Origin: a virus
Virus record (IMG/VR): IMGVR_UViG_3300034134_000009
Coordinates: 1 to 62,664 of that record
DNA: 62,664 bases
Reading direction: 5' to 3' (one strand)
Shown here: in pieces, positions 1-62,664 of the stretch
Layout of the letters: each line of letters starts with the position of its first letter
Position numbering within the stretch: position 1 is the stretch's first letter
Program-made: the position numbers and the translations under genes
Notes under the pieces: model-generated
Databases searched by the model: none
What the model was told of the DNA's origin: nothing
What the model saw: only the letters and a program-made list of their open reading frames with translations

Positions 1-127
1 TGCGTGCGAAGCCTGCGGACGACCGTTCCCAACCGTCGCCGACCACCTACGCGCCTCCATCGATTTCGTCGACAACGCCGGCCCGACGGTCGGCGACGAC
101 GTCGTGATCCAGTTCTATAGCCGGCTG
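1..127. repeat. 127-bp terminal direct repeat, identical to 62538..62664 (circular-assembly overlap or terminal redundancy)
   Basis: Compared by eye: tgcgtgcgaagcctgcggac...ccagttctatagccggctg is present at both window ends. An ORF reads through the junction in frame. Confidence 0.9.
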
Positions 128-586
128 TTCAGCATCGCCCCGGAACTGCGGGGGATCTTCCCGCCGGACCTGCTCGACGCGGAACGCGGCTCGGACACCC
201 GCGGGTTCCGGCAGCGTGACCAGCTGGTGTCGGCGCTGCGGACGGTGGGCCGGCTGTACGACCCGTTCAACCCGAAGTCCATGCAGGCACTCGACAGTTC
301 GCTGCAGCTGTGGGGCCGCCGGCATGCCGCGTTCCAGATGCCTGACGGGACGGTGCTGGTGCCGCGGCGGGCGCATTACGACGCGGTCGGGTCGTGCCTG
401 CTGGACACGCTGCATGATGTGGCGGGCCACGAGTGGGTGTCGGAGTGGGATGACGCGTGGGGTGAGGCTCTCGAGGTGGCGGGTGATTCGATGCGGCATT
501 ATGCCCGGCAGTGGCACGTGGGTATGGCGCGTCTGCCGCGCCGGTCGGCGGATCCGATGACGGTTCGGCGGCGTGACGAGGGCTGA
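2..586 (+). CDS. globin-domain protein, C-terminal part (continues the ORF starting at 62482 once the overlap is collapsed)
   Basis: Same frame as 62482. Globin-like motifs 'VIQFYSRLFSIAPELRGIFP', 'LQLWGRRHAAF' (candidate proximal His), 'HYDAVGSCLLDTL', 'WDDAWGEALEVAG'. Track ORF 104..586 is the internal-GTG version. Confidence 0.7.
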   Translation, partial: ACEACGRPFPTVADHLRASIDFVDNAGPTVGDDVVIQFYSRLFSIAPELRGIFPPDLLDAERGSDTRGFRQRDQLVSALRTVGRLYDPFNPKSMQALDSSLQLWGRRHAAFQMPDGTVLVPRRAHYDAVGSCLLDTLHDVAGHEWVSEWDDAWGEALEVAGDSMRHYARQWHVGMARLPRRSADPMTVRRRDEG

Positions 587-640: not shown

Positions 641-659
641 GCGCACACGGCCCGTGACA

Positions 660-700
660 CCCTTGACAGTTAACCGCATTCGGTTAGTGTGGGGGGGGGT
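660..700 (+). promoter_or_regulatory. operator-promoter copy P1 (variant)
   Basis: cccTTGACAgttaaccgcattcggtTAGTGT. -35 and -10 are 16 nt apart with a degenerate TAACCGG-NN-CCGGTTA palindrome in the spacer. Followed by a G9 run (691..699). Confidence 0.6.
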
Positions 701-1763: not shown

Positions 1764-2297
1764 GTGCCAATCCATGACCTGATCATCAGCTTCGTCGGCG
1801 GCTCCGACTGGGCCGACGTCGACGTGGAAATCAAGTGCCTCGGCATCACGGACGAGTGCGCCGAGTGGATCAACTGCGAGGTGCCCGAGTGCCCCGGCAG
1901 CACCGGCGGGGACGACACTCTGCACGACGTCAGCGACGTCGCTCACGGCCAGCAGCACAAGTACCTCGACGAGTCCTGGATGGTTCGCTCCGGCTCCTGC
2001 TACCTCGCGAACCACGGCCACGACATGGCCGGCCAAGTCGCCGAAAAGCTCGGCCTCGGTGACGGCCGGTACGAGGTCACCCCCGAGTTCGACGACGGCA
2101 CCCTCACTGACCTGGTGCTGGTTGATTGCCGTCCGAAGCCGTCGGACGACGAGCTGTTCGGGGATCTGCTCCCTGACCTCGATCCGCCTGACCTGCCGGT
2201 CCCATCCCGCTCATCCCGGAAGGTCCGGGTCCGTGTTCGCCGCGACCAGCGCACGCCGGGTACCGCGCCAAATTCATCGGCGGTGGACCGTGGCTGA
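1764..2297 (+). CDS. hypothetical protein (Cys-rich segment 'CLGITDECAEWINCEVPEC')
   Basis: GTG at residue 24 of track ORF 1695..2297, just after the upstream stop. gggag lies 13 nt upstream. Confidence 0.5.
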   Translation: MPIHDLIISFVGGSDWADVDVEIKCLGITDECAEWINCEVPECPGSTGGDDTLHDVSDVAHGQQHKYLDESWMVRSGSCYLANHGHDMAGQVAEKLGLGDGRYEVTPEFDDGTLTDLVLVDCRPKPSDDELFGDLLPDLDPPDLPVPSRSSRKVRVRVRRDQRTPGTAPNSSAVDRG

Positions 2298-3000
2298 GCC
2301 GTACTACAAAGACGAGCGAGTCACGCTGTACCACGGCGACTGCCGAGACATCCTGCCCCAACTTGATCCGGTGGACCTGGTGCTCACCGACCCGCCCTAC
2401 GGCATCAACTACGTCAGCAACTACACCACCGGCCGCGGCGCCAAGCCCATCACCAACGACGGGGCGCGCCTCTCCATCGCCCTCCAGCGGCAAGTGATCC
2501 CGCTGCTCTCCGGGCGCGCCCAGCACGTCCTTTGGTTCACGCGGTGGGATGTGTGGCCCGACGTGTGGGCCGAGCTCGGACCCTGGTTCCCGCTACGCGG
2601 CATGCTGATATGGGACAAGGCAGACCCTGGCATGGGCGACCTCAAGCACTGGGGGCCCTCTTACGAGATGATCGCCTCGGCAGGCTGGGGGAAGACGGTC
2701 GGTAGCCGGGACCAAAGCGTCCTGCGCCATTTCAAGCCGCCGGCCGCCGCCCGGGTGCATCCGACCGAGAAGCCGCAGGCGCTGCTGCGCTACCTGATCG
2801 GCAAGCTCGCCCCGACCACCGTCCTCGACCCCTTCGCTGGGGGCGGGTCTTCGCTTCTCGCCGCCCGCGACCAGGGATGCCGCGCGATCGGCATTGAGGT
2901 TCAAGAGTCGTACTGCGAGGCCATCGCCTCCCGCCTCAGCCAGGGCGTGCTTGACCTGGCCATGGTGGATAGCGGTTCTAAGCCGGGAGAGCCGTCATGA
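2290..3000 (+). CDS. DNA methyltransferase (N6-adenine/N4-cytosine type, DPPY motif)
   Basis: 'LVLTDPPYG' (motif IV) precedes 'VLDPFAGGGSS' (motif I), the beta-class order. 'HPTEKP'. GTG start overlaps the upstream stop (GTGGCTGA). Confidence 0.85.
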   Translation: MAEPYYKDERVTLYHGDCRDILPQLDPVDLVLTDPPYGINYVSNYTTGRGAKPITNDGARLSIALQRQVIPLLSGRAQHVLWFTRWDVWPDVWAELGPWFPLRGMLIWDKADPGMGDLKHWGPSYEMIASAGWGKTVGSRDQSVLRHFKPPAAARVHPTEKPQALLRYLIGKLAPTTVLDPFAGGGSSLLAARDQGCRAIGIEVQESYCEAIASRLSQGVLDLAMVDSGSKPGEPS

Positions 3001-5909: not shown

Positions 5910-8519
5910 TCAGGAAGTCCACGGGCCGGTGACCTGGCTGCCGTTCACGCCATGCCCCACCGCCCGATACTCGTACGGGGTGCGGCCGGCAACCCGCCAG
6001 TCGGTGATTGTCGCGTTCGCCGGGAGGTCCGCCCGGATCCTGGTGCCGTCGTCCGGGTTGTGGACCTGCAGCCGCAGCTCGTCGGCGTAGATCGCATCGG
6101 TGGGTGTCGGGGTGTTCGTCAGGCCGGCACCCACGCTGGCGCGGGCCGCGTTCGCCACCGATGACGGGTCCGCGATGAGGGTCAGGTACTGCCAGGCACC
6201 CGCCACCGGCGTCGACGATGTTGCCACGATCGACGACAGGTACACGCCGCCGGCGTCGTACAGGTTGATGTTGAGGCGGATGGGTTTGTTCGTGGTGTCC
6301 GGGCGGATCCACGCCGACGCGAACAGCGGCTTGGACGGGTCGATGGGCACGTGCGCCGATTCGATCTGCGGGAACTGTGAGGGGGACCCGGTGCCGGCGG
6401 GCACGTACCGGGCCGCGCCGGGTGAGGTCACGAACTGGGCGGTTGAGTAGGTCAGGGTGCCGGCGGTGCCGCCGCCCCCGACGACGTAGCCGGTGGTGTT
6501 CCCGTCGAAGGACGGGTTCGCGTTCAACGTCGGATTCGGTGCGGCGGCGCGCCGCCACAGGTCCACGGTTTGAATGGCGGGCTGGGTGCCGACGGGGGTG
6601 GGGTTGGTGATGGCCACACTGAACCAGCCGGACGCAGGCACGGGGGTTATCGCGACGGTCGGCACGGCCGCTTCGATGTAGTCGACGGTGAAGTTGCGGG
6701 CCGCGATCGTCGACGGCAAGCCTTCGTTGTTGCGGGTTTGAACGTGAACGGTCCATCCGGTGTTGTCGGCGAACCGGTACGGCGGAATGTCGGACGTGGT
6801 GACGGGGTCGGCTTGCCACCCCGACGAGTAGTAGATTTCGCCGCCGGGGTTGGTGAGCAGCGCGATCCGCCACGCCTTCTGCTCGGCGACCGTCCACGAC
6901 ACGTTGACGTAGTTCGTGGACAGGACCTGCGCGGCGGTGGGGGTGACGATGGTCGGGTCGACTTTCGCCGACGGGGTGAGAACCAGCGCGGCGGAGTACG
7001 GCGATTCGAGGGCGCCGGAGTCGCGGGTCTTCACCCGGAACGTGTAGGCCGCGTCGGTGGCGGCAGCCCAGCCGGCGGTGAGGGTCACCGACGACGTGCC
7101 GGACACGTTGATGATTTCGGTGGCACCCCACGTCGAGTTGCTGGCGTTCCAGTAGGTCAGCGCGCCGGCCCCGATTTGCCGGGACAGGGCGTACGACACT
7201 TGGACGTCGGCGGGGTTCGCGTCGTTGTGTTTCCACGCCAGGGTGAGCGCCGCGGCGACGTCGGCGGCGCCGCCGTTGGTGTAGGGCTGGGCGGACGTGT
7301 CCCACGTCGGGGCGGTCGGTGCGTAGTTCTGCTGCAGGTGAACCGACTTGATGGTCCACGGGCTGGTGGTGCCGGTGGTGTAGGCGATGTCGAACCGGGC
7401 GTTGCCGCCGGTGCCGCCGCGGCGGATGGTGAACTCATCGGGCGGGTTCGACGAGTTGATGAGGTCCGCGGACACCACTGTCCACGCACCCCACAGCGAC
7501 GTCGCCCGAACAAAGTCGACGTAGTAGAGCTGACTGTTCGAGGTGCCGATGGCGAAGATGCGCGGGTTGCGGGTCGAGAAGTCGTAGCCGATGCCCAAGG
7601 TGCGGATCACGCCGGCCGGGTGTTGCGGGGTTTTCCGGACCGTGGTCGCCGAGTTCGCCCGGTTCCGTTCGTACAGGTCTGCGGTGGTCGTGTCGTCGGT
7701 GTCGATGACGCACATGAGGAACCGTTCGCCGTCCCACTGCCCACTCACATAGTTCATCGCGGGGATCGACGAGTCGATGGTGACGACCGATGTCGGGGCG
7801 GTCCATCCGGAGCCGTTCCAGGCCATTTTCGCCATGTACAGCTTGGTGCGACCCCAGGTGATCCACAGGTTCGGGGTCAGGGACGTCAGCCCGTTGCCGA
7901 CGTGTTCGATGTCGATGGCGGGGGTGGTGCGGCCCGGGGAGGTGCCGGTCACCTGGTAGGACCGGTTCCCGGAGATCAGCCCGTTGGCCAGTTTGATCTC
8001 ACCCTGCGGGTTGATGGTGACCGCGTGAACGATCACCCCGTATTTCACGCCCACGTAGTTGCAGGACCCCACCACGGCGATCATGTAGTGGCCGCCCTCA
8101 GTGCGATGCACCGCCAGATCGACGCCCTGCCAAAATGACCCGGGCACGCCGCCGTTCGAGTCACCCGACCCGTTCGTCCCGGACACCTGAATGTTCGTCA
8201 AACCCCACGACGCGGTGTCCAGGTTCAGCCGGCGGTAGAACAGCCGGTCGAACTGGCTGTCCGAAAACCGGTAGGCGAGGTGGAGGAACCCCCACCGGTC
8301 GATCACCACGGACGACCATTCGACCTGACCGAACATGGTCGTCGTGACGAACGTTCCCCACGTGGACCCGCCGTCGGTGGACCGCCACACCCGGAACGCG
8401 TTCGACGCATCCGTGTTGCCGTACAGGTACAGGTAGCCGGTCCGCACATCCCGGGCGATCGTGCCGTGCGACGGATAGTCCAGCGGAATGGCGGTGGTGA
8501 CTGTTCCAACGGTGCCCAT
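5910..8519 (-). CDS. minor tail / receptor-binding protein with BNR (Asp-box) propeller-like N-terminus and carbohydrate-binding-like C-terminus
   Basis: 869 aa. 'RSTDGGSTW' Asp-box. Repeated Ig/FN3-like Thr/Ala-rich segments. C-terminal 'NANPSFDGNTTGY...WIRPD...LYDAGG...YADELRLQ' resembles a CBM jelly-roll. Confidence 0.75.
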   Translation of the reverse strand: MGTVGTVTTAIPLDYPSHGTIARDVRTGYLYLYGNTDASNAFRVWRSTDGGSTWGTFVTTTMFGQVEWSSVVIDRWGFLHLAYRFSDSQFDRLFYRRLNLDTASWGLTNIQVSGTNGSGDSNGGVPGSFWQGVDLAVHRTEGGHYMIAVVGSCNYVGVKYGVIVHAVTINPQGEIKLANGLISGNRSYQVTGTSPGRTTPAIDIEHVGNGLTSLTPNLWITWGRTKLYMAKMAWNGSGWTAPTSVVTIDSSIPAMNYVSGQWDGERFLMCVIDTDDTTTADLYERNRANSATTVRKTPQHPAGVIRTLGIGYDFSTRNPRIFAIGTSNSQLYYVDFVRATSLWGAWTVVSADLINSSNPPDEFTIRRGGTGGNARFDIAYTTGTTSPWTIKSVHLQQNYAPTAPTWDTSAQPYTNGGAADVAAALTLAWKHNDANPADVQVSYALSRQIGAGALTYWNASNSTWGATEIINVSGTSSVTLTAGWAAATDAAYTFRVKTRDSGALESPYSAALVLTPSAKVDPTIVTPTAAQVLSTNYVNVSWTVAEQKAWRIALLTNPGGEIYYSSGWQADPVTTSDIPPYRFADNTGWTVHVQTRNNEGLPSTIAARNFTVDYIEAAVPTVAITPVPASGWFSVAITNPTPVGTQPAIQTVDLWRRAAAPNPTLNANPSFDGNTTGYVVGGGGTAGTLTYSTAQFVTSPGAARYVPAGTGSPSQFPQIESAHVPIDPSKPLFASAWIRPDTTNKPIRLNINLYDAGGVYLSSIVATSSTPVAGAWQYLTLIADPSSVANAARASVGAGLTNTPTPTDAIYADELRLQVHNPDDGTRIRADLPANATITDWRVAGRTPYEYRAVGHGVNGSQVTGPWTS

Positions 8520-17691: not shown

Positions 17692-18222
17692 TCAGCTCTT
17701 GGCGGTTCCGCCGGTACGGGAGCGGCCCTGCGGCGGCTGCCGCCTGGCCTCCTGTTCGCCCTGCTCGTCGGACTTCGCGGCGGACTTCTGCCGGGCCTGC
17801 GCCGCGACCTTGCGGGCCTGCTGACGGGCCTGCCGGCCGATCTCCGGATCCACACCGACTGCCTCATCGGCGGCCACGGACCGCTTCTCGTACGCCTTGT
17901 CCAGTTCGAGGTTCGCGTGAGCCGGCGGCGGGATCTCCACCCCGGTCGGGTCACCGATCGCGACGAGGGCCCGGCCGGACGCCGACACCTCCACACCACG
18001 GGCGGCCAGCTCGCCCATGTACGGCGAGTCGTCACCGTCGAGAAGCTCGTTCGTCGGATCGACCGGGTACGGGTCCTGGGTGCCCTTGCCCCTCTCGCCC
18101 TGCGACGCGTATGTCACCGCCGCGTCGTGAATGTCACCCTCGGGGGTGCGGGCCTCGGCCGGGTTCGGGCCCCCGGCAACGGTCTCGTTCATCGGGGACT
18201 TGTTCTGGTCGTTGTCAGCCAT
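17692..18222 (-). CDS. hypothetical acidic/basic-tailed protein
   Basis: ATG 'MADNDQNK' overlaps the methyltransferase stop (ATGGCTGA). The track ORF extends to 18246. Confidence 0.5.
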   Translation of the reverse strand: MADNDQNKSPMNETVAGGPNPAEARTPEGDIHDAAVTYASQGERGKGTQDPYPVDPTNELLDGDDSPYMGELAARGVEVSASGRALVAIGDPTGVEIPPPAHANLELDKAYEKRSVAADEAVGVDPEIGRQARQQARKVAAQARQKSAAKSDEQGEQEARRQPPQGRSRTGGTAKS

Positions 18223-18787
18223 GTCGGCGTGACCCTTCCGTGTCATGGATCATCATCAGTCCGTATCCCATAGGCAGCTCGGAGGCCACCAGTTCACGTG
18301 CGTCGTCGTCGCACAGTCCGTGCCAGAACGCGGCCACACCGGGCAGTTCGGGGTGGGCGATGCCGTACACCACGACCAGGCCACCGGGCCGGGCCAGCGG
18401 CGCATACACCGCCCAGTCGGCGCGGGCGTCCAGTTCGGTGCGGGCCGCGGCCAGCACCACCACGTCGGCTTTGTTGCCGGCGAGCTGGTCGGACACCCGC
18501 AGCGCGGTCGCCCGGTCCCGGTGGTCGCCGTCGACGGCGGTCACCGTCGACGGAAGGTCCGCGGTGCGGAACCCGCCACCCGTGGCGCCGGGCCCGGGAA
18601 CACCCACCACCCGGGAACCCAGGGACCACCACGCCCACCACACCGATTCACCCGATCCCACATCCACGACGAGTCGCGGGTGGAGGTCGTCGACGGTTTC
18701 GAGCAGTGCCCACAGTTCGTGCGGGTTCGCGGTCGCGCCGCGCTGGCACGCCTCGAACGCCACGTCTCGGCACAGCTCAGTGGGCAT
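18215..18787 (-). CDS. class I SAM-dependent methyltransferase-like protein
   Basis: 'RLVVDVGSGESVWWAW' (motif I G-x-G), 'ADVVVLAAA', 'RPGGLVVVYG' (Rossmann strand pattern). Confidence 0.6.
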   Translation of the reverse strand: MPTELCRDVAFEACQRGATANPHELWALLETVDDLHPRLVVDVGSGESVWWAWWSLGSRVVGVPGPGATGGGFRTADLPSTVTAVDGDHRDRATALRVSDQLAGNKADVVVLAAARTELDARADWAVYAPLARPGGLVVVYGIAHPELPGVAAFWHGLCDDDARELVASELPMGYGLMMIHDTEGSRRHG

Positions 18788-18790
18788 CAG

Positions 18791-19150
18791 TCAGTCCCCG
18801 AACACGATCACCGCGACGGCCCCGGTTGCTGACGGGGTGGTGCCCGCCAGCGTGAGGACGGTGCGCACGTAGTTCGCGGTCGCCACGACCATCACCTGCG
18901 CCGTGCCGGCCGCCGACAGGGCAACCGCCGTGGAGCCGGCCACTGTCGTCCAGCCGGACGAGCCGTTCGCCGACTGCTCGACCGACAGCGTCGCTGTCGG
19001 GGTGGTGCCGGTCAGCGCGGTCAGGTGCACCCCGGCGAGCACCACAGAGGCGTCACCGGGGTTACCGACCGGGCCGGACGTCACCGTGGCGGTGGCGTTC
19101 GTGAACTGCGAGGCAATGTCACCCCGCGCGTACTGCAAACCTGCCGGCAT
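18791..19150 (-). CDS. hypothetical protein (head-associated position)
   Basis: 119-aa Thr/Ala-rich ORF directly after the major capsid gene. Confidence 0.5.
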   Translation of the reverse strand: MPAGLQYARGDIASQFTNATATVTSGPVGNPGDASVVLAGVHLTALTGTTPTATLSVEQSANGSSGWTTVAGSTAVALSAAGTAQVMVVATANYVRTVLTLAGTTPSATGAVAVIVFGD

Positions 19151-19183
19151 GACCCCTCCTTTCTGAACCTGCTGGTAGCCGGA

Positions 19184-20632
19184 TCAGAAAACGGGGGTGA
19201 TGAGGCCGGTGCCGTCGATGCGCTGCACCGCGTTCGCGAACCGCCGCAGCGTGTACGCGAAGTAGCCGTAGAGAACCAGCTGAACGCCGAGGGTGCCTGC
19301 GGTGGGCTGCTCCGCCCGGATGAACACCGGCGCGTTCGGGTCCTCCCACAGGTGACACTCGTCGGACGACACCACGTAGATCCGGTCCTCGTTCGTGCCG
19401 GTGCCCAGGTTCGTCGCCACGTTGTTGTCGGTGATGACCACCATGCCGTTCGGCAGGACACCCCGCGCGCCGGCACCGTACCGGTTGCCGTTGTTCGACC
19501 CCATCGCGTTACCGGGAATGCCGGGCTGAGCGAACGCCGGCCACGCGGTGGTGAGCTGCGACTGCAGCCAGAACCAGCGCCGGGAGTGCATGACGACGAT
19601 GTCCGCCGACCCGAACCCGAGCAGCGCCGACTCCACACCTGCGGCAGCGCCGAGGATCTTCGGCCACAGCTCCGCCGCCGTCGGCGACGCGTCGGTGTAC
19701 GCGTTCGACACCGAAACGGCGTCGAGGCCCGTGGTGGCCTGCGTGAGGATCGTCTGGTCGAGGGCGGTCGCGTACCGGCGGAACAGGTCGTCCATGACGA
19801 CACCCTCCACGCCGGTGCCACGCTCGATGGCCTGACGGCTGAGGGTCTGCTGGCCGGCGGCGGTCTGGACGTTCTCCGTGAGCAGCGTGTCGTCGATGTC
19901 CTGGTTGACGACGGCCGTGTTCTCCGTGGTCTGCAGTCCGACACTCGTGGTGGTGGTGATGCGGGAGATGTTGACCGTCATGCCGTTCTCGGGCAGGTCG
20001 TGACGGTTCATCGCATCGGCGAACGGGCGCAGCGCCGCGGTCGCCGGGGCGTACATCTCCGTCAGGTACTGGGGGACGACCAGGCCGGCGAACGCGCCGG
20101 TACCCACGGCACGCTCGAGGTAGGCGCCACGCTCGACACGCTCCTCCTGCATGTGCCGCTGAAGGCGCTGCTCCGCTTCGATGTCACGGAACAGGGACTG
20201 GCGGATGATGTCCCGGACGAACGAGCCGCCCTTGCCGGTGTTCTGCCGGTTGTAGGTGCGGGGCTCCTCACCGATGCGGGCCACACCGTCGTACGCGGCC
20301 CGGGAGGTGCTGGCACCGCCGCCGGGCTGCGGCACAGGCCGCGGAGTCGCGCCACGCTCGACAAGAGCGGCGTCGGCTTCGAGTTCGGCGGCCTTGGTGC
20401 GCTGCGCGATCTCCATCTTCCGCTCGATGCCCTGCAGCTTCACCTTGGCGTCGGAGTCAGCGTCCATAGCGCGCTGAACGTCGGCGTCTTCCTGTTCGGT
20501 GAGGTTGGCTCGGCCTTCGGCCTTCGCGGCGGCGAGGATCGCCCGGACCTCGGCGCGGGAACGCTCACCGCGCCGCTTTTCCATGTCTCGCTCAGCCTCG
20601 AGGCTGATGATCAGGTCTTCGATGGTTGCCAT
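19184..20632 (-). CDS. major capsid protein (HK97 fold) with N-terminal coiled-coil delta/scaffold domain
   Basis: 482 aa. N-terminal charged coiled coil ('EAERDMEKRRGERSRAEV...'), then 'GLVVPQYLTEMY', 'MTVNISRITT', 'QTLSRQAIERG', typical of HK97-type capsids. Confidence 0.9.
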   Translation of the reverse strand: MATIEDLIISLEAERDMEKRRGERSRAEVRAILAAAKAEGRANLTEQEDADVQRAMDADSDAKVKLQGIERKMEIAQRTKAAELEADAALVERGATPRPVPQPGGGASTSRAAYDGVARIGEEPRTYNRQNTGKGGSFVRDIIRQSLFRDIEAEQRLQRHMQEERVERGAYLERAVGTGAFAGLVVPQYLTEMYAPATAALRPFADAMNRHDLPENGMTVNISRITTTTSVGLQTTENTAVVNQDIDDTLLTENVQTAAGQQTLSRQAIERGTGVEGVVMDDLFRRYATALDQTILTQATTGLDAVSVSNAYTDASPTAAELWPKILGAAAGVESALLGFGSADIVVMHSRRWFWLQSQLTTAWPAFAQPGIPGNAMGSNNGNRYGAGARGVLPNGMVVITDNNVATNLGTGTNEDRIYVVSSDECHLWEDPNAPVFIRAEQPTAGTLGVQLVLYGYFAYTLRRFANAVQRIDGTGLITPVF

Positions 20633-20684
20633 TACGGCTTGTCCTTACGGTCGCAGGGTGTGAGCCTGCCCCGCAGAACGGCAC

Positions 20685-20803
20685 CGGGTCTGATGGCGCG
20701 GCTGCGTCCTTTTCGCCGCCGGGTCTGACTGGCCGGTGTGGCGCGCGTGGCGTGTCTCGTGTCTGGCGCGGCCGGTCTGATTGCCGGTTTGGTCCGGTCT
20801 GAA
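20685..20803. repeat. four direct copies of C(C/G)GGTCTGA upstream of the capsid gene
   Basis: ggtctga at 20687, 20722, 20774 and 20796, each preceded by ccg/cgg, within the 245-bp gap between the capsid start and P2. Confidence 0.6.
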
Positions 20804-20877
20804 CGCCGGGCCGCTGTCGCACGTGTGGTCAGCTTACGGCCGATCACGGCACGTTGGGTAGAAACACTCTGATGCAA

Positions 20878-20914
20878 CCCTTGACAGTTAACCGCTTCCG
20901 GTTAGTATTGGGGT
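20878..20914 (+). promoter_or_regulatory. operator-promoter copy P2 (leaderless)
   Basis: cccTTGACAgttaaccgcttccggtTAGTATtggggtATG. The ATG of 20915 starts 6 nt after the -10. Confidence 0.7.
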
Positions 20915-21175
20915 ATGGACATGACCCCGCAGGCAACCCCGATGTACGCCGCCGGCGTCACCGGCAACCGCACCGGAAACGTGTACACCGTCATCGGATG
21001 GGTCCCCTACCACGACAACGCCCCCGACATCGGCCTCGCGCCCGTCATCGTCCCCATCGACGGCGGAGCGCTCGCCCAGAAATACCTCCCCGACAACGGC
21101 ATCGCCCGACTGTTCCCCAGCGTCGAAGAGGCCCGCGCCGTCGCGAGCGCCGCGAAGCCCCGCCAGAACGCCTGA
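20915..21175 (+). CDS. hypothetical protein (leaderless first gene of the antisense cassette)
   Basis: 86-aa ORF starting at the predicted transcription start. Confidence 0.55.
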   Translation: MDMTPQATPMYAAGVTGNRTGNVYTVIGWVPYHDNAPDIGLAPVIVPIDGGALAQKYLPDNGIARLFPSVEEARAVASAAKPRQNA

Positions 21176-21176
21176 C

Positions 21177-21791
21177 ATGAGCAGCGACCCCCAATTCGAA
21201 GTCCGACCTGTCGACTACGCCACGGTCAAGAAGGTGCTCGCAGAGGCCCACTACATCGGCAAGCCCGGATCCACGTCCGTCCGTCTCGGCCTCTACCTCG
21301 CTGGCGAACTGGCCGGCGTCATCACTTACGGGACCATCCCCCTGCCTAACGCCCGCGCGATCTGCGGGCCGGAGCACGAGCGGCAAGTCCTGGAGCTAAC
21401 CCGACTTGCCCTTTACGACTGGGCACCCCGCAACAGTGAATCTCGGCTCATCGCCGCGTCTTACCAACATGTTCTTGTCGCTCGACCCCAAACCCGGATC
21501 CTGATCTCCTACGCGGACGGGAGACAGGGTCATGTCGGCACCATCTACCAGGCATCCAACTGGCTTTACACCGGCGCAAGCACGGGGGACGTGGTGTACT
21601 GCTGCGACGACGGGCGCACATTACACCCTCGCACTGTCGGGTGGAAAGATCTTCCGCCGGGCCGATGGGTGCCGGCGGGAAACAAGTACCGCTATGTAAC
21701 TTTCATCGGCACACCCACAGACCGGCGGGTGCTCCGGAAGCGCCTACGCTGGCCGGTCCTTCCTGCCCCAAAGTTGTCCGAAGTCAAGTAG
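21177..21791 (+). CDS. GNAT-fold, Mom-like putative DNA-modification acyltransferase
   Basis: 'AHYIGKPGS', 'GLYLAGELAGVITYG', 'LELTRLAL', 'NSESRLI', 'ILISYADGRQGHVGTIYQASNWLYTG'. Family assignment is from memory, not searched. Confidence 0.55.
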   Translation: MSSDPQFEVRPVDYATVKKVLAEAHYIGKPGSTSVRLGLYLAGELAGVITYGTIPLPNARAICGPEHERQVLELTRLALYDWAPRNSESRLIAASYQHVLVARPQTRILISYADGRQGHVGTIYQASNWLYTGASTGDVVYCCDDGRTLHPRTVGWKDLPPGRWVPAGNKYRYVTFIGTPTDRRVLRKRLRWPVLPAPKLSEVK

Positions 21792-21825
21792 CCACCCGGA
21801 GCGTTTATCTAAACCGCAGCCCAGC

Positions 21826-21860
21826 AAAAATGCCCCACCCGGATCGGGTGGGGCATTTTC
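21826..21860. terminator. bidirectional intrinsic terminator
   Basis: caaaaa-atgccccaccc-ggatc-gggtggggcat-tttc: 11-bp stem with an A-run on one side and a T-run on the other. Confidence 0.7.
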
Positions 21861-21904
21861 GTCGCCCGCAGAGGCCACAACAGCGCTGGACACGCACCAA
21901 CAGC

Positions 21905-22921
21905 CTAGTCGAACCGGATGCCCTCCGCACGTGCCAACGCCTCCACCAACGCCAACGAACGACCACGCGGCACCGACCTCACCCCATCCGCCGGCACATC
22001 CACCACCCGCTCCGACGCCTCATCATCGACCACCACCGGTGCCGGCGTCGGATCCACCGTCGACGCGGCCTCCACGCCCGACTCGTCATGCTCGAACACG
22101 TCATCGTCGGCCAGATCCTCAGCGTCCGGGTCCGGCTCCGACGAACGGACCCGGGGCACGCCCGGCACCACGATCCGTTCCCGCTCGAGCAAGTCGATGC
22201 GCTGCCCTAGCCGGCGGTGAGCCTCCGCCAGCGCGCCCGGCGGCAAATGCTCAAGGTCGTTCAATACCTCACCGGCCCGGGCGGCGATGTCGGTGTACGG
22301 GTTCGCGCCGTAGTTCACCGCCGACACGTCCCCGCGGTGAATGTCGTAGGCGCGGATCTCGAACGTGCTGAAGTCTTCCGACCACCAGCCCCCATCGTCG
22401 GGGATGGTGAACGCGAACGACATCTGGTCAATGTTGCCGTCGTCGATTGCGACGATCAGGTCCCGGACGTCTTGGCGGGCCGGGTTCAGCCACGCCTCAT
22501 GCCAGGCCCCCTCGTCGCGTTCCTCGAGGACGAGGGAGCCGTTCGTGGTGCGGGCCATGGTCACACCCTTGTGGTTCACCAGGAACGCCACGTCCGGGTT
22601 GGCTGCCAGCGACTTCGCCCCGGCGCCCTGCGTCACGACCTCGTCGTACTCGCCGAACATGTCCCACATCGGGTAGGGGGTGTCGTACCGGGTGAACAGG
22701 CCGTACGTGTGGTACATCTCCCTGCCGCGCCACTGCGTGAGTTCCGACCGGATCAGTGTCTTCCCCGGCACCATCCGGGACCGGCCCACACCCTGCACCA
22801 GATTCCGGGGCACTACACCACCTGCACGGAACCGGGTCTGATACTCCACCTGGCGCCGTTCAGCCGCGGCGCGGCGCTCGGCGGCACCCTTCCGGGTCGT
22901 TGTCATCGCCTCTCCCCTCAC
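21905..22921 (-). CDS. prohead (capsid maturation) protease, HK97/S78 type
   Basis: 'AFLVNHKG', 'QMSFAF', 'HRGDVSAVNYGANP'. Acidic C-terminal extension. An alternative ATG at 22906 has a ggggagagg RBS. Confidence 0.8.
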   Translation of the reverse strand: MRGEAMTTTRKGAAERRAAAERRQVEYQTRFRAGGVVPRNLVQGVGRSRMVPGKTLIRSELTQWRGREMYHTYGLFTRYDTPYPMWDMFGEYDEVVTQGAGAKSLAANPDVAFLVNHKGVTMARTTNGSLVLEERDEGAWHEAWLNPARQDVRDLIVAIDDGNIDQMSFAFTIPDDGGWWSEDFSTFEIRAYDIHRGDVSAVNYGANPYTDIAARAGEVLNDLEHLPPGALAEAHRRLGQRIDLLERERIVVPGVPRVRSSEPDPDAEDLADDDVFEHDESGVEAASTVDPTPAPVVVDDEASERVVDVPADGVRSVPRGRSLALVEALARAEGIRFD

Positions 22922-24168
22922 GCTGCGGCCCCGGCCGGTGCCGGCGCGCCCTCATCCGTAGCGGCCGTCTGACCGCCACCCGTCCCGCCGATCTTCGGCG
23001 ACCCGTACAGATCACGCATCTCCGCCAACTGCTCCGCCGACAACGGCGCCCGGTTCTCCAACTCCCGGGCCTCCGTGTTCGTCAAGAACCACGACTCGAC
23101 ACGCGACCGCAACACGTCCTGCCTCGTCGCGTCATCCATGCGCAACAACGCCGACGTGTTCAGCTTCACGTACCGGGGCCGGGGCAGCAGCTTCGACAGG
23201 GTGTTCTCCCGCCGGATCACCGTCGGGCCCAAATGGTGGATCAGGTAGTCGAGGTTCCGCTGCGTGATGTTCGCGTACGTGATGCTCGCGCCGCCGCCCG
23301 GGTTCGCATCGACCATGTCCGCCGGGGTGTCCAGGAACCGGCAGATGTCCACGGCGGACAGCCTCCGGCCTTCGATGAACTCGATGCCGGCGGTCTGCGC
23401 CTGGATCATTTCGTATTCCCAGTCGTTACCCATGACGAGCAGGTCGCCGTTGGTGACGACGTCGGCGTACCACTGTTTCGCCTGCGCGATCCCGGCGGTC
23501 TCGAGTTTCTTCGCCGTGTTGCGCATCTTGCCCTTCGGCACGCCGCCACCGCCGAACCAGTCAAGGCCGAACTGCTGCATGCTCAACGACTCACCGATCG
23601 ACAGGGCGGCGTAGTTGAGCGTCGACAGACCCACCGGCAGGCCAGGAACCACGTTGCCGCGCTCATGCCACACATCGTCAAGGTGGTACAGGGTCCCGCC
23701 GATCCGCCACCGGTCCGGCTCCCCCGGCTTACGCACGTACGCGCACGCCGACGCGGGCTGCAACTCGATACGGTGCGGCAGACCGTCCGGATAGAGCGGT
23801 GTGCGGACCGTGTTGCGTTCCACGATCAACCCGACGGCGTTACCGGCCCGGTCCAAGTCGATCTGCGTCGCCGCCATGAAATCGATCATGTCCATGCGGA
23901 CGCCGCCCGGATCGGTGAGAATCGGAGGCTTCGACGGATACTCAGTCTGGGTGCCCAACACATCCCGGTACACGTCCACCGGGAACGTCGAAATCAGACC
24001 GGCGCGCAACCGCAGGCACGCCCACACCACCGAATGGCGCATCGCCCGGTCATCGGTGACCAGCTGCGAACCCACCTGCCGGCTGCCACCGGCCCGGCCC
24101 GGGATCAGATCCTCGGCACCGGTGATGCCGACGAAGTCGCGTGCCTCGTTGCGGGTGAACAGGCCCAT
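22918..24168 (-). CDS. portal protein
   Basis: 416 aa between the terminase and protease genes. 'VVWACLRLRAGLISTFP' N-terminal pattern typical of HK97-type portals. Confidence 0.8.
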   Translation of the reverse strand: MGLFTRNEARDFVGITGAEDLIPGRAGGSRQVGSQLVTDDRAMRHSVVWACLRLRAGLISTFPVDVYRDVLGTQTEYPSKPPILTDPGGVRMDMIDFMAATQIDLDRAGNAVGLIVERNTVRTPLYPDGLPHRIELQPASACAYVRKPGEPDRWRIGGTLYHLDDVWHERGNVVPGLPVGLSTLNYAALSIGESLSMQQFGLDWFGGGGVPKGKMRNTAKKLETAGIAQAKQWYADVVTNGDLLVMGNDWEYEMIQAQTAGIEFIEGRRLSAVDICRFLDTPADMVDANPGGGASITYANITQRNLDYLIHHLGPTVIRRENTLSKLLPRPRYVKLNTSALLRMDDATRQDVLRSRVESWFLTNTEARELENRAPLSAEQLAEMRDLYGSPKIGGTGGGQTAATDEGAPAPAGAAA

Positions 24169-28133: not shown

Positions 28134-28243
28134 TCTGCCAGCCGTGTGGGCGCGGCAAACACCGCAAGTGCACCAACCCGAACACCTGCACCTGCCAACA
28201 CCGGCCACCGCCACAACCTGAACCAGGAGAACCCCAACCATGA
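28130..28243 (+). CDS. small Cys-rich protein (37 aa)
   Basis: Hand-translated MICQPCGRGKHRKCTNPNTCTCQHRPPPQPEPGEPQP. ATGA overlaps at both ends. Confidence 0.35.
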   Translation: MICQPCGRGKHRKCTNPNTCTCQHRPPPQPEPGEPQP

Positions 28244-28827
28244 GCGACTACGACAGTGCAGCCGACACCCTCCGCCACATCAACCGAGTCGCAACGCTCA
28301 TGACCCAGCCCATCACCGAACTCATCACCCGAGCCCCCCAGCACGACGCCAGCAAACTCAACCTGCCCGAGAAACACACATTCGACCGCATGACGCCCAG
28401 GCTCGCCACCACCACATACGGAACACCCGAATACGCGGCGAACCTCGCCGAGATGAAACCCGCCCTCGATCACCATTACGCCCACAACCGGCACCACCCC
28501 GAACACTTCGGCGCAGCCGGCGTCAACGGCATGACCCTCGTTGACCTGATCGAGATGCTCGCAGACTGGAAAGCCGCCACCGAACGGCACGCAGAGGGCA
28601 GCCTCAAACGCAGCCTCGCCATCCAGGCGTCACGGTTCAACCTGTCCGCCCAGACCACCGACATCCTGACCGCAACCGCCCGGCACTTCGGATGGCTCGA
28701 CTGCGCCGCCGAACACACCGCCCCCGACGGCACCAAAATGCGCTGCAACCGGCTCGACCAGCACCCCGACAACCACGTGGACGGGCATTACGAACCATAC
28801 GACTGGGCAGGCCAGGTGCAGCCATGA
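28240..28827 (+). CDS. HD-like metal-binding protein (DUF5662-like)
   Basis: 'QHDASKLNLPEK' and 'HHYAHNRHHPEHF'. Family name recalled from memory. Confidence 0.5.
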   Translation: MSDYDSAADTLRHINRVATLMTQPITELITRAPQHDASKLNLPEKHTFDRMTPRLATTTYGTPEYAANLAEMKPALDHHYAHNRHHPEHFGAAGVNGMTLVDLIEMLADWKAATERHAEGSLKRSLAIQASRFNLSAQTTDILTATARHFGWLDCAAEHTAPDGTKMRCNRLDQHPDNHVDGHYEPYDWAGQVQP

Positions 28828-48194: not shown

Positions 48195-48425
48195 TCAGGA
48201 CGGAATGTCAGTGGATGCGTAGTCGTCGGCGTCTTCGATGTGCCACCCGGACGACACGTAGTTCGCCACGAAGTCCTCGGTTACCGAGTCGGCGAGGTCG
48301 TTCCGCTGCTGCGGGGTCATCGCCTCCCACTCGTCGCGGTCAACGGTGAACGTCTCGTCCCGGCTGTCAGCGAACGCCTCGACGTGCAGGTTGATGACGA
48401 CCGGGGGACGGCTGGGACTGGTCAT
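48195..48425 (-). CDS. hypothetical acidic protein (first gene downstream of P3)
   Basis: ATG with gagg RBS (residue 22 of track ORF 48195..48488). Confidence 0.5.
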   Translation of the reverse strand: MTSPSRPPVVINLHVEAFADSRDETFTVDRDEWEAMTPQQRNDLADSVTEDFVANYVSSGWHIEDADDYASTDIPS

Positions 48426-48485
48426 AGTGACCGCCTCTCGAACGGGTTTGGGGTGTACGCGGTGCCCGTTGCCGGACGTTGCGTA

Positions 48486-48523
48486 CACCCCAATACTAAC
48501 CGGATCCGGTTAGGTGTCAAGAG
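48486..48523 (-). promoter_or_regulatory. operator-promoter copy P3
   Basis: Minus sense ctcTTGACAcctaaccggatccggtTAGTATtggggt. The leader can form an 11-bp stem ggggtgtacgc/gcgtacacccc (48450..48491). Confidence 0.65.
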
Positions 48524-49436: not shown

Positions 49437-49840
49437 CAGTTGCCCCCCTGTCGGTCCCGGATTGCCTGTGCCTGCTGCCGTTCCTCATCCGTGAGCGGCG
49501 TCGGGTTGCCCATCGACTCGTGGATGCGCTCGTAGACGCCGCTCAGAATCAGATCAACGGAGACGTGTCTCCACGAGAGCGGGCCGACTAGGCGGGTGAG
49601 CCCCACGATGCGGCTGACCTGCCCGTCACACTTCATCGACCAGCGACCACCCAGCGCCCGTTCCTGCGCGCGGCGCAGGTCATCCCACGCCAGTTCGAGT
49701 AGCCAGCGCAGAGCAGAGTCCGGCGTCGCGAACTCGTCATCCTCCGCAGCTGCAGACACTGCCGCGTCGACGTACTCGGAGACCGGCCGGGTGCGCCACC
49801 GGTGGGCCAGATCGGCTTCCGTCAATTCCACGTACTCCAT
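49436..49840 (-). CDS. hypothetical protein
   Basis: 134-aa ORF between the exonuclease and ERF genes. Confidence 0.5.
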   Translation of the reverse strand: MEYVELTEADLAHRWRTRPVSEYVDAAVSAAAEDDEFATPDSALRWLLELAWDDLRRAQERALGGRWSMKCDGQVSRIVGLTRLVGPLSWRHVSVDLILSGVYERIHESMGNPTPLTDEERQQAQAIRDRQGGN

Positions 49841-52829: not shown

Positions 52830-53036
52830 CTACTTGACGAACAGTCCGGAGTGCGCGAAGTAGGGCCGCCCGTTGATCAGGGTCATGGCCTTGCCGGTCT
52901 GCCAGTGCGGCTCCGTCGGCTCGACGTCGGTGACCCGGATGTCGTCGTTCGGGTTCGCGCCGATGATGATGTCGCCGGCGACGACCTGTCCGGCGGTCTT
53001 GAAGGTGCTTTTGCGGGTGCGGTCCAGGATGTCCAT
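52830..53036 (-). CDS. hypothetical protein (leaderless from P4)
   Basis: 68-aa ORF whose ATG follows the -10 by 6 nt. Confidence 0.55.
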   Translation of the reverse strand: MDILDRTRKSTFKTAGQVVAGDIIIGANPNDDIRVTDVEPTEPHWQTGKAMTLINGRPYFAHSGLFVK

Positions 53037-53075
53037 ACCCCAATACTAACCGGTTCCGGTTAACTGTCAAGGGTT
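53037..53075 (-). promoter_or_regulatory. operator-promoter copy P4 (leaderless)
   Basis: Minus sense cccTTGACAgttaaccggaaccggtTAGTATtggggtATG. Confidence 0.7.
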
Positions 53076-53778: not shown

Positions 53779-54024
53779 TCAGTTCGTGCGGGCCGGGCAC
53801 CAGGCCCACACGGTGGTCATCTGTACCGACGTCTCGCACAGCACGCACCATTCGGTGTGGCCGTCGGCGTTCATCGGGTCGTATTCGCGGCCCGTGCCGG
53901 CGTGGTCACAGAGGATCCATCCGGCCCCGGCGCAGGTGGTGCAGTCGTCGGTGTCGCAACCCAGGTCCCGGGTGTTCGGGGTGATTCCGAAGGCGTCGGG
54001 GGTTTTGGTCTGCGTCGTTGTCAT
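53779..54024 (-). CDS. Cys-rich hypothetical protein (leaderless from P5)
   Basis: 81 aa. 'CDTDDCTTCAGAGWILCDH...WCVLCE'. ATG 6 nt after the -10. Confidence 0.55.
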   Translation of the reverse strand: MTTTQTKTPDAFGITPNTRDLGCDTDDCTTCAGAGWILCDHAGTGREYDPMNADGHTEWCVLCETSVQMTTVWAWCPARTN

Positions 54025-54076
54025 ACCCCAATACTAACCGGTTCCGGTTAACTGTCAAGGGTGTCGAGTGTGACAA
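54025..54076 (-). promoter_or_regulatory. operator-promoter copy P5 (leaderless) with 18-bp upstream extension
   Basis: 54023..54076 is identical to 55683..55736 (54 bp), including gggtgtcgagtgtgacaa. Confidence 0.7.
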
Positions 54077-55641: not shown

Positions 55642-55684
55642 CGTGGTCTGCCTTTCCGGTGGGGTGCCTGTGTGGCTGGCTGAT

Positions 55685-55736
55685 ACCCCAATACTAACCG
55701 GTTCCGGTTAACTGTCAAGGGTGTCGAGTGTGACAA
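55685..55736 (-). promoter_or_regulatory. operator-promoter copy P6 with 18-bp upstream extension
   Basis: Identical to P5. Overlaps the last codons of 55708..56031. About 40-nt leader to 55641. Confidence 0.7.
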
Positions 55737-56031
55737 CCCCCGGCGAAGCGTTGTGCTCCGCCAACGCCCGCCGCACCGACGCCTCCGACACCCGCCGATG
55801 CCCCTGCAACACCCGACCCAGACTGTCCACCGACTTCGCCCCCCACGTCTTCTTCCGCCGCGACACCAACACCTCCTGATCCGCAAGCCGGCGAACCGTC
55901 GACGGCGACGCACCCAAAATCTTCGCGGCCTGACCCGTCGTCAACCACACCTCATCCTCCGAGAAATTTTCGCCAGGCTCCTCGCGAACATTTCCGCCCG
56001 TCACAGCCAACTCTTCGCTTCCGTTGCTCAT
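55708..56031 (-). CDS. HTH DNA-binding protein (MerR/excisionase-like)
   Basis: 107 aa. 'WLTTGQAAKILGASPSTVRRLADQ'. Divergent from the plus arm. Confidence 0.55.
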   Translation of the reverse strand: MSNGSEELAVTGGNVREEPGENFSEDEVWLTTGQAAKILGASPSTVRRLADQEVLVSRRKKTWGAKSVDSLGRVLQGHRRVSEASVRRALAEHNASPGVVTLDTLDS

Positions 56032-62481: not shown

Positions 62482-62664
62482 ATGACCGAATCAGACACCG
62501 ACCGGCCCGAGCCCGGCCCGCCGCCGCTACGCAAACCTGCGTGCGAAGCCTGCGGACGACCGTTCCCAACCGTCGCCGACCACCTACGCGCCTCCATCGA
62601 TTTCGTCGACAACGCCGGCCCGACGGTCGGCGACGACGTCGTGATCCAGTTCTATAGCCGGCTG
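62482..62664 (+). CDS. globin-domain protein, N-terminal part (runs off the window; continues at 128)
   Basis: ATG with acggagg RBS 8 nt upstream. The same frame is open back to an ATG at 62281, which overlaps the MazG stop, so the true start may be earlier. 'CEACGRPF' Cys pair. Confidence 0.6.
   Translation, partial: MTESDTDRPEPGPPPLRKPACEACGRPFPTVADHLRASIDFVDNAGPTVGDDVVIQFYSRL
62538..62664. repeat. 127-bp terminal direct repeat, identical to 1..127
   Basis: See feature 1..127. Confidence 0.9.

Follow-up and report, generated by a model that had tools for sequence, protein, structure and literature searches.

In lambdoid phages such as HK97, a moron is a gene with its own promoter and terminator that is inserted between two genes of the late operon, a definition that reportedly goes back to Juhala and co-workers in 2000. 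In actinophages, repeated repressor operators are represented by the conserved inverted repeats of phiC31 and by the stoperators of mycobacteriophage L5. In this study, we analysed the IMG/VR virus record IMGVR_UViG_3300034134_000009 (positions 1 to 62,664; this whole stretch of 62,664 nucleotides (nt) is referred to as the window), in which a plus-strand unit at 20876..21859 lies between the genes for the prohead protease and the major capsid protein, both of which are on the minus strand. The unit encodes a protein of the family of Mom, the DNA-modification enzyme of phage Mu, and its promoter is a copy of an early promoter/operator repeat of the phage itself. We conclude that the unit is very probably a self-contained moron, inserted backwards between the protease and capsid genes and carrying the Mom-family enzyme as its payload.

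Mom is the founding GNAT that uses a charged transfer RNA (tRNA) for DNA hypermodification, and its mechanism was worked out in 2026 (Silva et al. 2026, PMC13219725). In the Mu reaction, Gly-tRNA(Gly) donates its glycine to the N6 position of adenine in double-stranded DNA, and the adduct rearranges to N6-carbamoylmethyl-deoxyadenosine (PMC13219725). Its active site is lined by H58, Y59, R111, S124, D149, R151, and Y159, and a helix-turn-helix (HTH)-like insertion (Mu residues about 175-209) is required, its deletion killing the enzyme; W48 and W181 are also important in Mu Mom and are not presented as family-defining (PMC13219725). Mom homologues number thousands in viromes, the metagenomic homologues tested were active and carry an insertion as well, and the co-substrate and the substrate are, according to the authors, unpredictable from structure (PMC13219725). 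Known metagenomic homologues of Mom exceed 8,000. Untimely Mom expression is described as toxic in E. coli (PMC3378877). The mom gene of Mu is a late gene at the genome end under the control of C, Dam/OxyR, and Com.

Layout of the cassette

In the direction of the late operon, the upstream flank of the cassette is the S78 prohead protease gene (21905..22921, minus strand; PF04586, 1.4e-17), and the downstream flank is the major capsid protein gene (19184..20632, minus strand), which was identified through a tblastn match of its product to the capsids of cluster J mycobacteriophages (30% identity, 1e-35). The gap between the two genes is 1,272 nt. It contains, on the plus strand, a promoter/operator repeat unit that includes the first start codon (20876..20922), an open reading frame (ORF) of 86 amino acids (aa), referred to as orf86 (20915..21175), an ORF of 204 aa (21177..21791), and a predicted terminator hairpin (21826..21859). 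The original prediction, which had been made from the sequence alone, described a plus-strand cassette between the prohead protease and capsid genes, and all of its elements, including both ORFs and the peptide motifs quoted from the 204-aa translation, were recovered at the same positions.

Assignment of the 204-aa protein to the Mom family

The only Pfam match of the 204-aa protein was to Mom (PF25680), with an E-value of 1.6e-38 and a score of 132.8 bits against a cut-off of 27.1 bits (105 above it), covering profile positions 2-152 of 202. The protein also matched phrog_1384 of PHROG, 'Mom-like DNA modification protein' (3e-42), and was aligned by tblastn to Mu Mom with 27.6% identity over 97% of the protein (7e-14). 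Furthermore, a phmmer search against the PDB gave the crystal structure of Mu Mom, 8bv8, as the sole match (1.6e-14). An AlphaFold2 model, built with 73 homologues, had a predicted local distance difference test (pLDDT) value of 94.4. In the Foldseek search with this model, 8bv8_B and 8bv8_A ranked first and second with E-values of 1e-14 and 2.5e-13, respectively, and template modeling (TM) scores of 0.73-0.78, whereas other GNATs reached E-values of ~1e-5 and TM scores of <=0.54.

The active-site residues H58, Y59, R111, S124, D149, R151, and Y159 of Mu Mom were aligned to H25, Y26, R76, S89, D114, R116, and Y124 of the 204-aa protein, respectively, and all seven were thus kept. Across the 73 homologues, H25, Y26, R76, S89, and Y124 were invariant and D114 was nearly invariant. 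These results indicate that the 204-aa protein is a member of the Mom family. This identity had been proposed in the original prediction, which called for a confident Mom or GNAT match of 21177..21791 in a profile search; the Pfam match was of this kind, and it was joined by the PHROG match, the PDB sequence match, and a fold match well above those to other GNATs. The description of the protein as an 'acyl-modification' enzyme, on the other hand, is outdated in its wording, as Mu Mom makes N6-carbamoylmethyl-adenine from Gly-tRNA(Gly) (PMC13219725). Judging from its sequence, the 204-aa protein likely has the Mu-type chemistry, and its predicted function is tRNA-dependent hypermodification of DNA adenine at N6.

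The G+C content at third codon positions (GC3) of the Mom gene was 0.74, compared with 0.86-0.91 in the neighbouring genes. In every genome checked (L008, L101, L102, L103, L107, L114, L115, and the window; L numbers denote the loci compared in this study), the GC3 of the Mom gene was below that of most or all of its neighbours, typically by 0.05-0.2. Low GC3 was considered as a sign of recent acquisition and was rejected, since the same dip was present in all seven other genomes. It is a clade-wide trait that fits a frequently exchanged gene and says nothing on recency at this locus.

Promoter and putative operator repeats

The cassette promoter consists of the -35 box TTGACA (20881-20886), a 16-nt spacer, and the -10 box TAGTAT (20903-20908), in agreement with the consensus at 10 of 12 positions, and it was the sole sigma-70-like match in 18000..24000, where 0.3 were expected. 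A 38-mer search showed that the promoter recurs at 53071..53034 and 54059..54022 with <=3 mismatches (3 copies against 0 expected). With alignment and blastn-short in addition to the promoter scan and the 38-mer search, six copies were recognised, at 20880(+), 53071(-), 54059(-), 55741(-), 48521(-), and 659(+). The phage thus has an early promoter/operator family with six members, and the cassette promoter is one of these copies.

The copy closest to that of the cassette (53029..53075, minus strand) was 93.6% identical to it over 47 nt by blastn-short and is followed by a leaderless ORF predicted to encode 68 aa. A second copy (54022..54062, minus strand) is followed by a predicted leaderless ORF of 81 aa, and a third (55683..55722, minus strand), which precedes an ORF of 503 aa, marks the head of the early arm on the leftward side. 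The copy at 48487..48521 (minus strand) precedes a predicted leaderless ORF that opens with GTG (48488..48195), and the copy at 659..688 (plus strand) lies in the rightward arm, upstream of an operon with a gene for an N6/N4 DNA methylase (2059..3000). The start codon belongs to the repeat: in four of the six copies, the ATG or GTG that opens the ORF is at a constant offset from the -10 box. The original prediction had called the cassette promoter early-type. The locations of the other five copies support this, because four of them fall within the initial 7 kb of the arm that runs leftward to the recombination/replication genes and one is before the DNA methylase operon.

A palindrome, AACCG-CTTC-CGGTT (20890..20903), is situated in the spacer between the -35 and -10 boxes, with its right arm abutting the -10 box, and is a putative repressor operator. 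AACCG-N4-CGGTT occurred six times against 0.1 expected. The 5-nt arms were invariant in the six window copies and in two full copies of L008, while the 4-nt centre took six different sequences; a third L008 copy was truncated in the right arm. Invariant arms around a variable centre are the pattern expected of a site for a protein dimer, and we infer such binding here. Both 'operator-controlled' and 'leaderless', the terms of the original prediction, fit the sequence of the promoter region.

The N6/N4 DNA methylase gene (plus strand) is a second DNA-modification gene of the phage, ~1.4 kb downstream of the repeat copy at 659..688, and may be co-regulated with the Mom gene. Furthermore, a gene for a 107-aa HTH_17/MerR-like protein of the excisionase type (55711..56031, minus strand) has its TAA stop codon inside the repeat copy that heads the early arm; this DNA-binding protein is a candidate palindrome-binding factor.

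Predicted terminator and orf86

The hairpin at 21826..21859 is flanked by A5 and T4 and lies 45 nt before the stop codon of the protease gene. Its folding free energy (dG) was -31.4 kcal/mol on the plus strand (z = -4.3), consistent with the strong terminator with which the cassette had been said to end, and -40.3 kcal/mol on the minus strand (z = -7.3). A simple terminator scanner missed this hairpin because only four T follow it. With A5 on one side and T4 on the other, it is predicted to be an intrinsic terminator that reads on both strands, i.e., a bidirectional one, and to stop the cassette transcript before the protease gene. No counterpart of the terminator was found in the related loci, and an Rfam search of 20400..22100 gave just a sub-threshold chance match on it.

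The ATG of orf86 (20915) is located 6 nt after the -10 box, and a leaderless mRNA is therefore predicted. A search with a word-indexed method returned only orf86 itself, whereas the subsequent exhaustive HMMER search of 1.84 billion representative proteins gave two homologues, with 52% and 47% identity. Both are encoded in arrays of small early genes with no Mom nearby; in one of these arrays, the window early gene 49457..49837 has a homologue two genes downstream of the orf86 homologue. With these homologues and a native-like GC3 of 0.91, orf86 is a real gene. It had no match in Pfam, PHROG, or NCBIfam, its AlphaFold2 model was uninformative (pLDDT 43), and it contains no cysteine. The ATG of the Mom ORF (21177) comes 1 nt after the TGA of orf86 (TGAcATG) and has no Shine-Dalgarno sequence. 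From this junction, leaderless translation of orf86 probably feeds the translation of Mom by coupling. In seven loci with close Mom homologues, the neighbours of Mom were mutually unrelated and no upstream gene was conserved. Taken together, orf86 is most likely a passenger early gene and not a dedicated partner of Mom.

Insertion site

A scan of IMG/VR with the window capsid protein gave 80 related loci, and both the protease and capsid genes could be placed in 64 of them. The gap between the two genes had a median of 158 nt and was <=258 nt in 60 of the 64 loci, in contrast to 1,272 nt in the window, and neither Mom nor orf86 had a match between the two genes in any of the 80 loci. In the closest relatives, the gap is ~200 nt long and is occupied by GGCAGTCAGACC in four copies, together with a GCCACGCG box and a hairpin immediately ahead of the capsid start. 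This whole native array is retained in the window at 20633..20815, so the cassette sits between the protease stop codon and the array. Alignment with five relatives placed the capsid-side edge of the insertion at the native intergenic repeat array, in which GGCAnTCAGACC, present four times ahead of the capsid gene, spans 20679..20809 (minus strand). On the opposite side, the 3' end of the protease gene is intact, and the C-terminal tail GRSLALVEA is conserved with the relatives.

No flanking direct repeats or target-site duplications were found around the window cassette. Compared with the related loci, the right flank showed no homology and the left flank showed native intergenic similarity only; the boundaries of the insert are not definable at the nucleotide level. 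An own promoter, an own terminator, and a site between genes that are adjacent in relatives are all present by sequence. The synteny with the 80 related loci speaks for the moron-like acquisition proposed originally.

In many relatives (L021-L026 and others), the copies of GGCAnTCAGACC (three or four), the GCCACGCG box, and the hairpin were confined almost entirely to the 300 nt that precede the capsid gene; this array could be a late promoter or an activator site. When folded as RNA, the capsid-proximal intergenic region was no stabler than shuffled sequences (z = 0.22). The protease gene itself also differs among these phages. The closest relatives (L021, 4001..5797; L023, 4103..5785; L026, 3810..5807) have a double protease, 560-665 aa long, in which a ClpP domain is fused behind the S78 domain, and the window protease of 338 aa is without the ClpP part and keeps the common C-terminal tail.

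Other extra ORFs, none with a Pfam match, were observed at the protease-capsid junction: an antisense, low-G+C ORF in L064 (5466..6026) and co-directional ORFs in L053 (2118..2789) and L029 (590..769). From these ORFs, insertions seem to have landed repeatedly at this junction, which may be a hotspot.

Mom genes in other genomes

The closest homologues of the window Mom (60-77% identity) were all from soil metagenome contigs; one is in a Terrabacter genome and is named 'Mom family adenine methylcarbamoylation protein' by NCBI. In two phages of the same family as that of the window, L008/L023 (one contig) and L114, the Mom gene belongs to the leftward early operon and has the same orientation as the other genes in it; the divergent control region is a few kb away. 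In L008, it lies between a truncated promoter/operator copy upstream (5976..6003) and a full copy downstream (6598..6637), and the Mom stop codon is inside the latter. Since promoter/operator copies bracket the Mom gene in this way, recombination at the promoter repeats is suggested to shuffle genes in this phage family.

The Mom genes of other phage types, and those of isolated actinophages, are co-directional in early or replication modules, some of them beside DNA methyltransferase genes (L103) and, in isolated actinophages, beside the DNA polymerase gene. A phage type with a Mu-like portal (L107-L109), which is unrelated to that of the window, carries a 64%-identical Mom that is also antisense within the structural module; because the two types are unrelated, the backwards placement of Mom arose at least twice. 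In L107, the Mom gene is flanked by a 25-nt direct repeat (5922..5947 and 6675..6699; also in L108 and L109) that duplicates the 3' end of the neighbouring gene (NWPTEVI*). Ahead of the Mom gene of this type is a promoter-like repeat that the adjacent gene has as well. In a neighbor-joining tree, the window Mom grouped with the Mom proteins of other phage types and not with the early-operon copies of its own family, with bootstrap values of 42-53%, which do not discriminate between relocation of the gene within the genome and its arrival from another phage.

General features of the phage genome

The first 127 nt of the window are identical to the last (1..127 = 62538..62664), and the contig of the ENA assembly is permuted and equally long. 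Because of this exact terminal overlap and the permutation, the window is a complete, circularly assembled phage genome of ~62.5 kb. An identical contig sequence of 62,678 nt is present in the ENA, JGI, and Logan assemblies. The G+C content is 67.7%, and the phage is a soil actinobacterial phage with a high-G+C actinobacterium as the host. Megablast searches with the cassette and with 24 kb around it gave no close nucleotide relatives among isolated phages.

From ~55.7 kb down to 4.5 kb, almost all genes are on the minus strand, in the order of small early genes, recombination/replication genes (YqaJ, AAA_25 helicase-like protein, and beta clamp), lysis genes, and structural genes. Within this long minus-strand arm, a gene for a DUF5662 protein (28240..28827, 8e-37) is on the plus strand and may be a second antisense insert. 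A 160-aa ORF at 104..586 (plus strand) gave a weak match to Pfam Globin that was above the threshold (6e-06, 27.2 bits against a cut-off of 22 bits) and is unusual in a phage. No integrase, partition gene, or immunity repressor was found among the ~30 window ORFs scanned.

Proposed mechanism

In the mechanism that we propose for the moron, transcription by host RNA polymerase would begin with the A of the orf86 start codon or with a nucleotide adjacent to it, and the mRNA would be leaderless. AACCG-N4-CGGTT would be bound by a dimer of a phage DNA-binding protein that switches the cassette promoter in concert with the other five, and Mom would be made with the early genes; the early-type promoter would in this way keep the expression class that Mom has in actinophages despite the late-region address. 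Translation of Mom by termination-reinitiation after orf86 would hold this potentially toxic enzyme at a low level, and the terminator would shield the protease gene from antisense transcription. As in Mu, glycine would be transferred from Gly-tRNA(Gly) to N6 of adenine in double-stranded DNA, leading to N6-carbamoylmethyl-adenine. No tRNA gene, including that for tRNA(Gly), was found in the phage genome, and hence the tRNA(Gly) of the host would be used by Mom. With the adenines of the replicating phage DNA modified, the genome would be packaged in a restriction-resistant form.

Several observations weigh against this reading. The identity to Mu Mom is just 26-29%, and NCBIfam gave no match for the 204-aa protein. 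The residues corresponding to W48, which is at the dimer interface of Mu Mom, and W181 are not conserved, being A15 and T148, respectively, in columns that are variable across the homologues. The HTH-like insertion is also 10 residues shorter than that of Mu (32 against 42, from a conserved Y to the K/QxR anchor); this segment is 32-35 residues long throughout the close Mom clade, and the AlphaFold2 model shows one short helix in the region. Regarding the control of the cassette, no repressor was identified and no integrase was found among the ~30 ORFs scanned. Lastly, a terminator that also reads on the minus strand should end late transcripts ahead of the capsid gene, a cost for which the mechanism gives no explanation. 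Antitermination of late transcription, or a separate capsid promoter within the conserved repeat array, would avoid this cost.

Alternative explanations

The low identity to Mu Mom, the DNA-binding insertion shortened by 10 residues in the clade, and the absence of W48 and W181 would also be expected of a Mom-family enzyme with a chemistry or specificity unlike that of Mu, using another aminoacyl-tRNA or acyl donor, sequence context, or base; the unit would then still be an anti-restriction moron with a new adduct. That co-substrate and substrate are unpredictable from structure (PMC13219725) also speaks for it. All seven active-site residues are kept, however, the overall fold match is high, and tested metagenomic homologues were active and carry an insertion as well (PMC13219725), and we consider a different chemistry possible but unlikely. 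A combined proposal goes further, namely that the short-insertion clade installs a non-Mu modification (by another aminoacyl-tRNA donor or target context) and, at the same time, that the cassette is a timing device, in which the bidirectional terminator and the convergent early promoter would uncouple capsid expression from the upstream head genes and shut Mom off at late transcription. That both parts are true together seems distinctly unlikely. An ordinary GNAT acetyltransferase, with a protein, small molecule, or antibiotic as its substrate and no role on DNA, might be suspected from the many phage records in which homologues are labelled simply 'acetyltransferase' and from the generic GNATs that Foldseek also retrieved at ~1e-5. 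This is highly improbable, in view of a sole Pfam match that is Mom-specific and 105 bits over the cut-off, a best structural match to Mu Mom that leads by nine orders of magnitude in E-value and ~0.2 in TM score, the preservation of the Mom-specific active-site residues, and the presence of some homologues among DNA methyltransferase genes (L103).

Classical morons are often expressed from prophages, and the centre of the cassette palindrome is CTTC as against GAAC in three early copies, a difference by which the affinity of a repressor could be altered. The cassette promoter might then evade repression and function in a prophage or in the carrier state, with the host DNA modified to the benefit of the host or the prophage. 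Lysogenic conversion of this kind is nevertheless quite improbable: the palindrome arms are intact, the ORFs scanned included no integrase or partition gene, and untimely Mom is reported to be toxic in E. coli (PMC3378877). A dedicated regulator or partner of Mom encoded by orf86 would accord with the tight TGAcATG junction and the predicted shared transcript, and would resemble Com of the com-mom operon of Mu, where com lies directly upstream of mom and overlaps it. The original prediction had tentatively drawn this analogy, which found no support in the analysis. Lacking cysteines, orf86 cannot form a Com-type zinc finger, its only two homologues are in early-gene arrays unlinked to Mom, and the genes upstream of close Mom homologues were unrelated in the seven loci compared, all of which makes such a partnership very unlikely. 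As for the arrangement being ancestral and the cassette having been lost by the relatives, the absence of flanking direct repeats and of definable nucleotide boundaries would be compatible with it. The cassette is present in none of the 80 relatives and the junction is compact in 60 of 64, two same-family relatives have Mom elsewhere, and the cassette promoter is 93.6% identical to an early-region copy; an ancestral arrangement is accordingly extremely improbable.

Comparison with known systems

The preferred reading, a backwards-inserted moron with a Mom-family payload, brings together components that are already known, that is, the Mom family, its annotation in actinophages, and morons as a textbook concept. 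Only the placement and the wiring are unusual here, and current understanding is not overturned by the locus. Its instructive local features are the reuse of the phage's own early promoter, the probable translational coupling that replaces Com, the bidirectional terminator (predicted) that splits the head operon, and the short-insertion Mom clade. With this locus, a high-G+C actinophage Mom of a separate short-insertion clade is added, and it would be a reasonable choice for probing the reach of the Gly-tRNA chemistry. The locus may also offer a clean natural example of a counter-defence gene moving within a phage family, from an early operon to a recurrent head-gene site, with its expression class kept by a copy of the early promoter.

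Compared with phage Mu Mom (8bv8, PF25680), the window protein shares the family, the GNAT fold with an extra insertion, the seven active-site residues, and the presumed anti-restriction role, whereas it differs in its 26-29% identity, its insertion shorter by 10 residues, and the absence of W48 and W181. In contrast to the late mom gene of Mu, the window gene has an early-type promoter, lies antisense between head genes, and probably depends on translational coupling to a small, unrelated ORF. The family also includes the Mom-like 'acetyltransferase' genes of Microbacterium phage BarnCat (gp63), Mycobacterium phage Ohno789 (gp40), and Arthrobacter phage Martha (gp71), which are from phages of the same host phylum and show 31-37% identity. 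In BarnCat and Ohno789, however, Mom is co-directional in the DNA-replication module, whereas in the window it forms a stand-alone antisense unit in the head module.

The cassette resembles the lambdoid morons in having its own promoter and terminator, in its position between adjacent late genes, and in its absence from relatives. The Mom gene, though not orf86, is also lower in GC3 than its neighbours, as Mom genes are in every genome checked. The cassette differs from the lambdoid morons in that its promoter is copied from the phage's own early repeat and is not foreign, in that its terminator is predicted to be bidirectional and to interrupt the host operon, and in that its payload would serve the phage, in counter-defence, and not the lysogen. 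With the phiC31 repeats and the L5 stoperators, the palindrome family shares a short conserved motif, here a putative protein-binding one, that is repeated genome-wide at or near promoters. In the window, unlike in those systems, the repeated element is a whole promoter of 38-47 nt that includes the leaderless start codon and has the palindrome inside its spacer.

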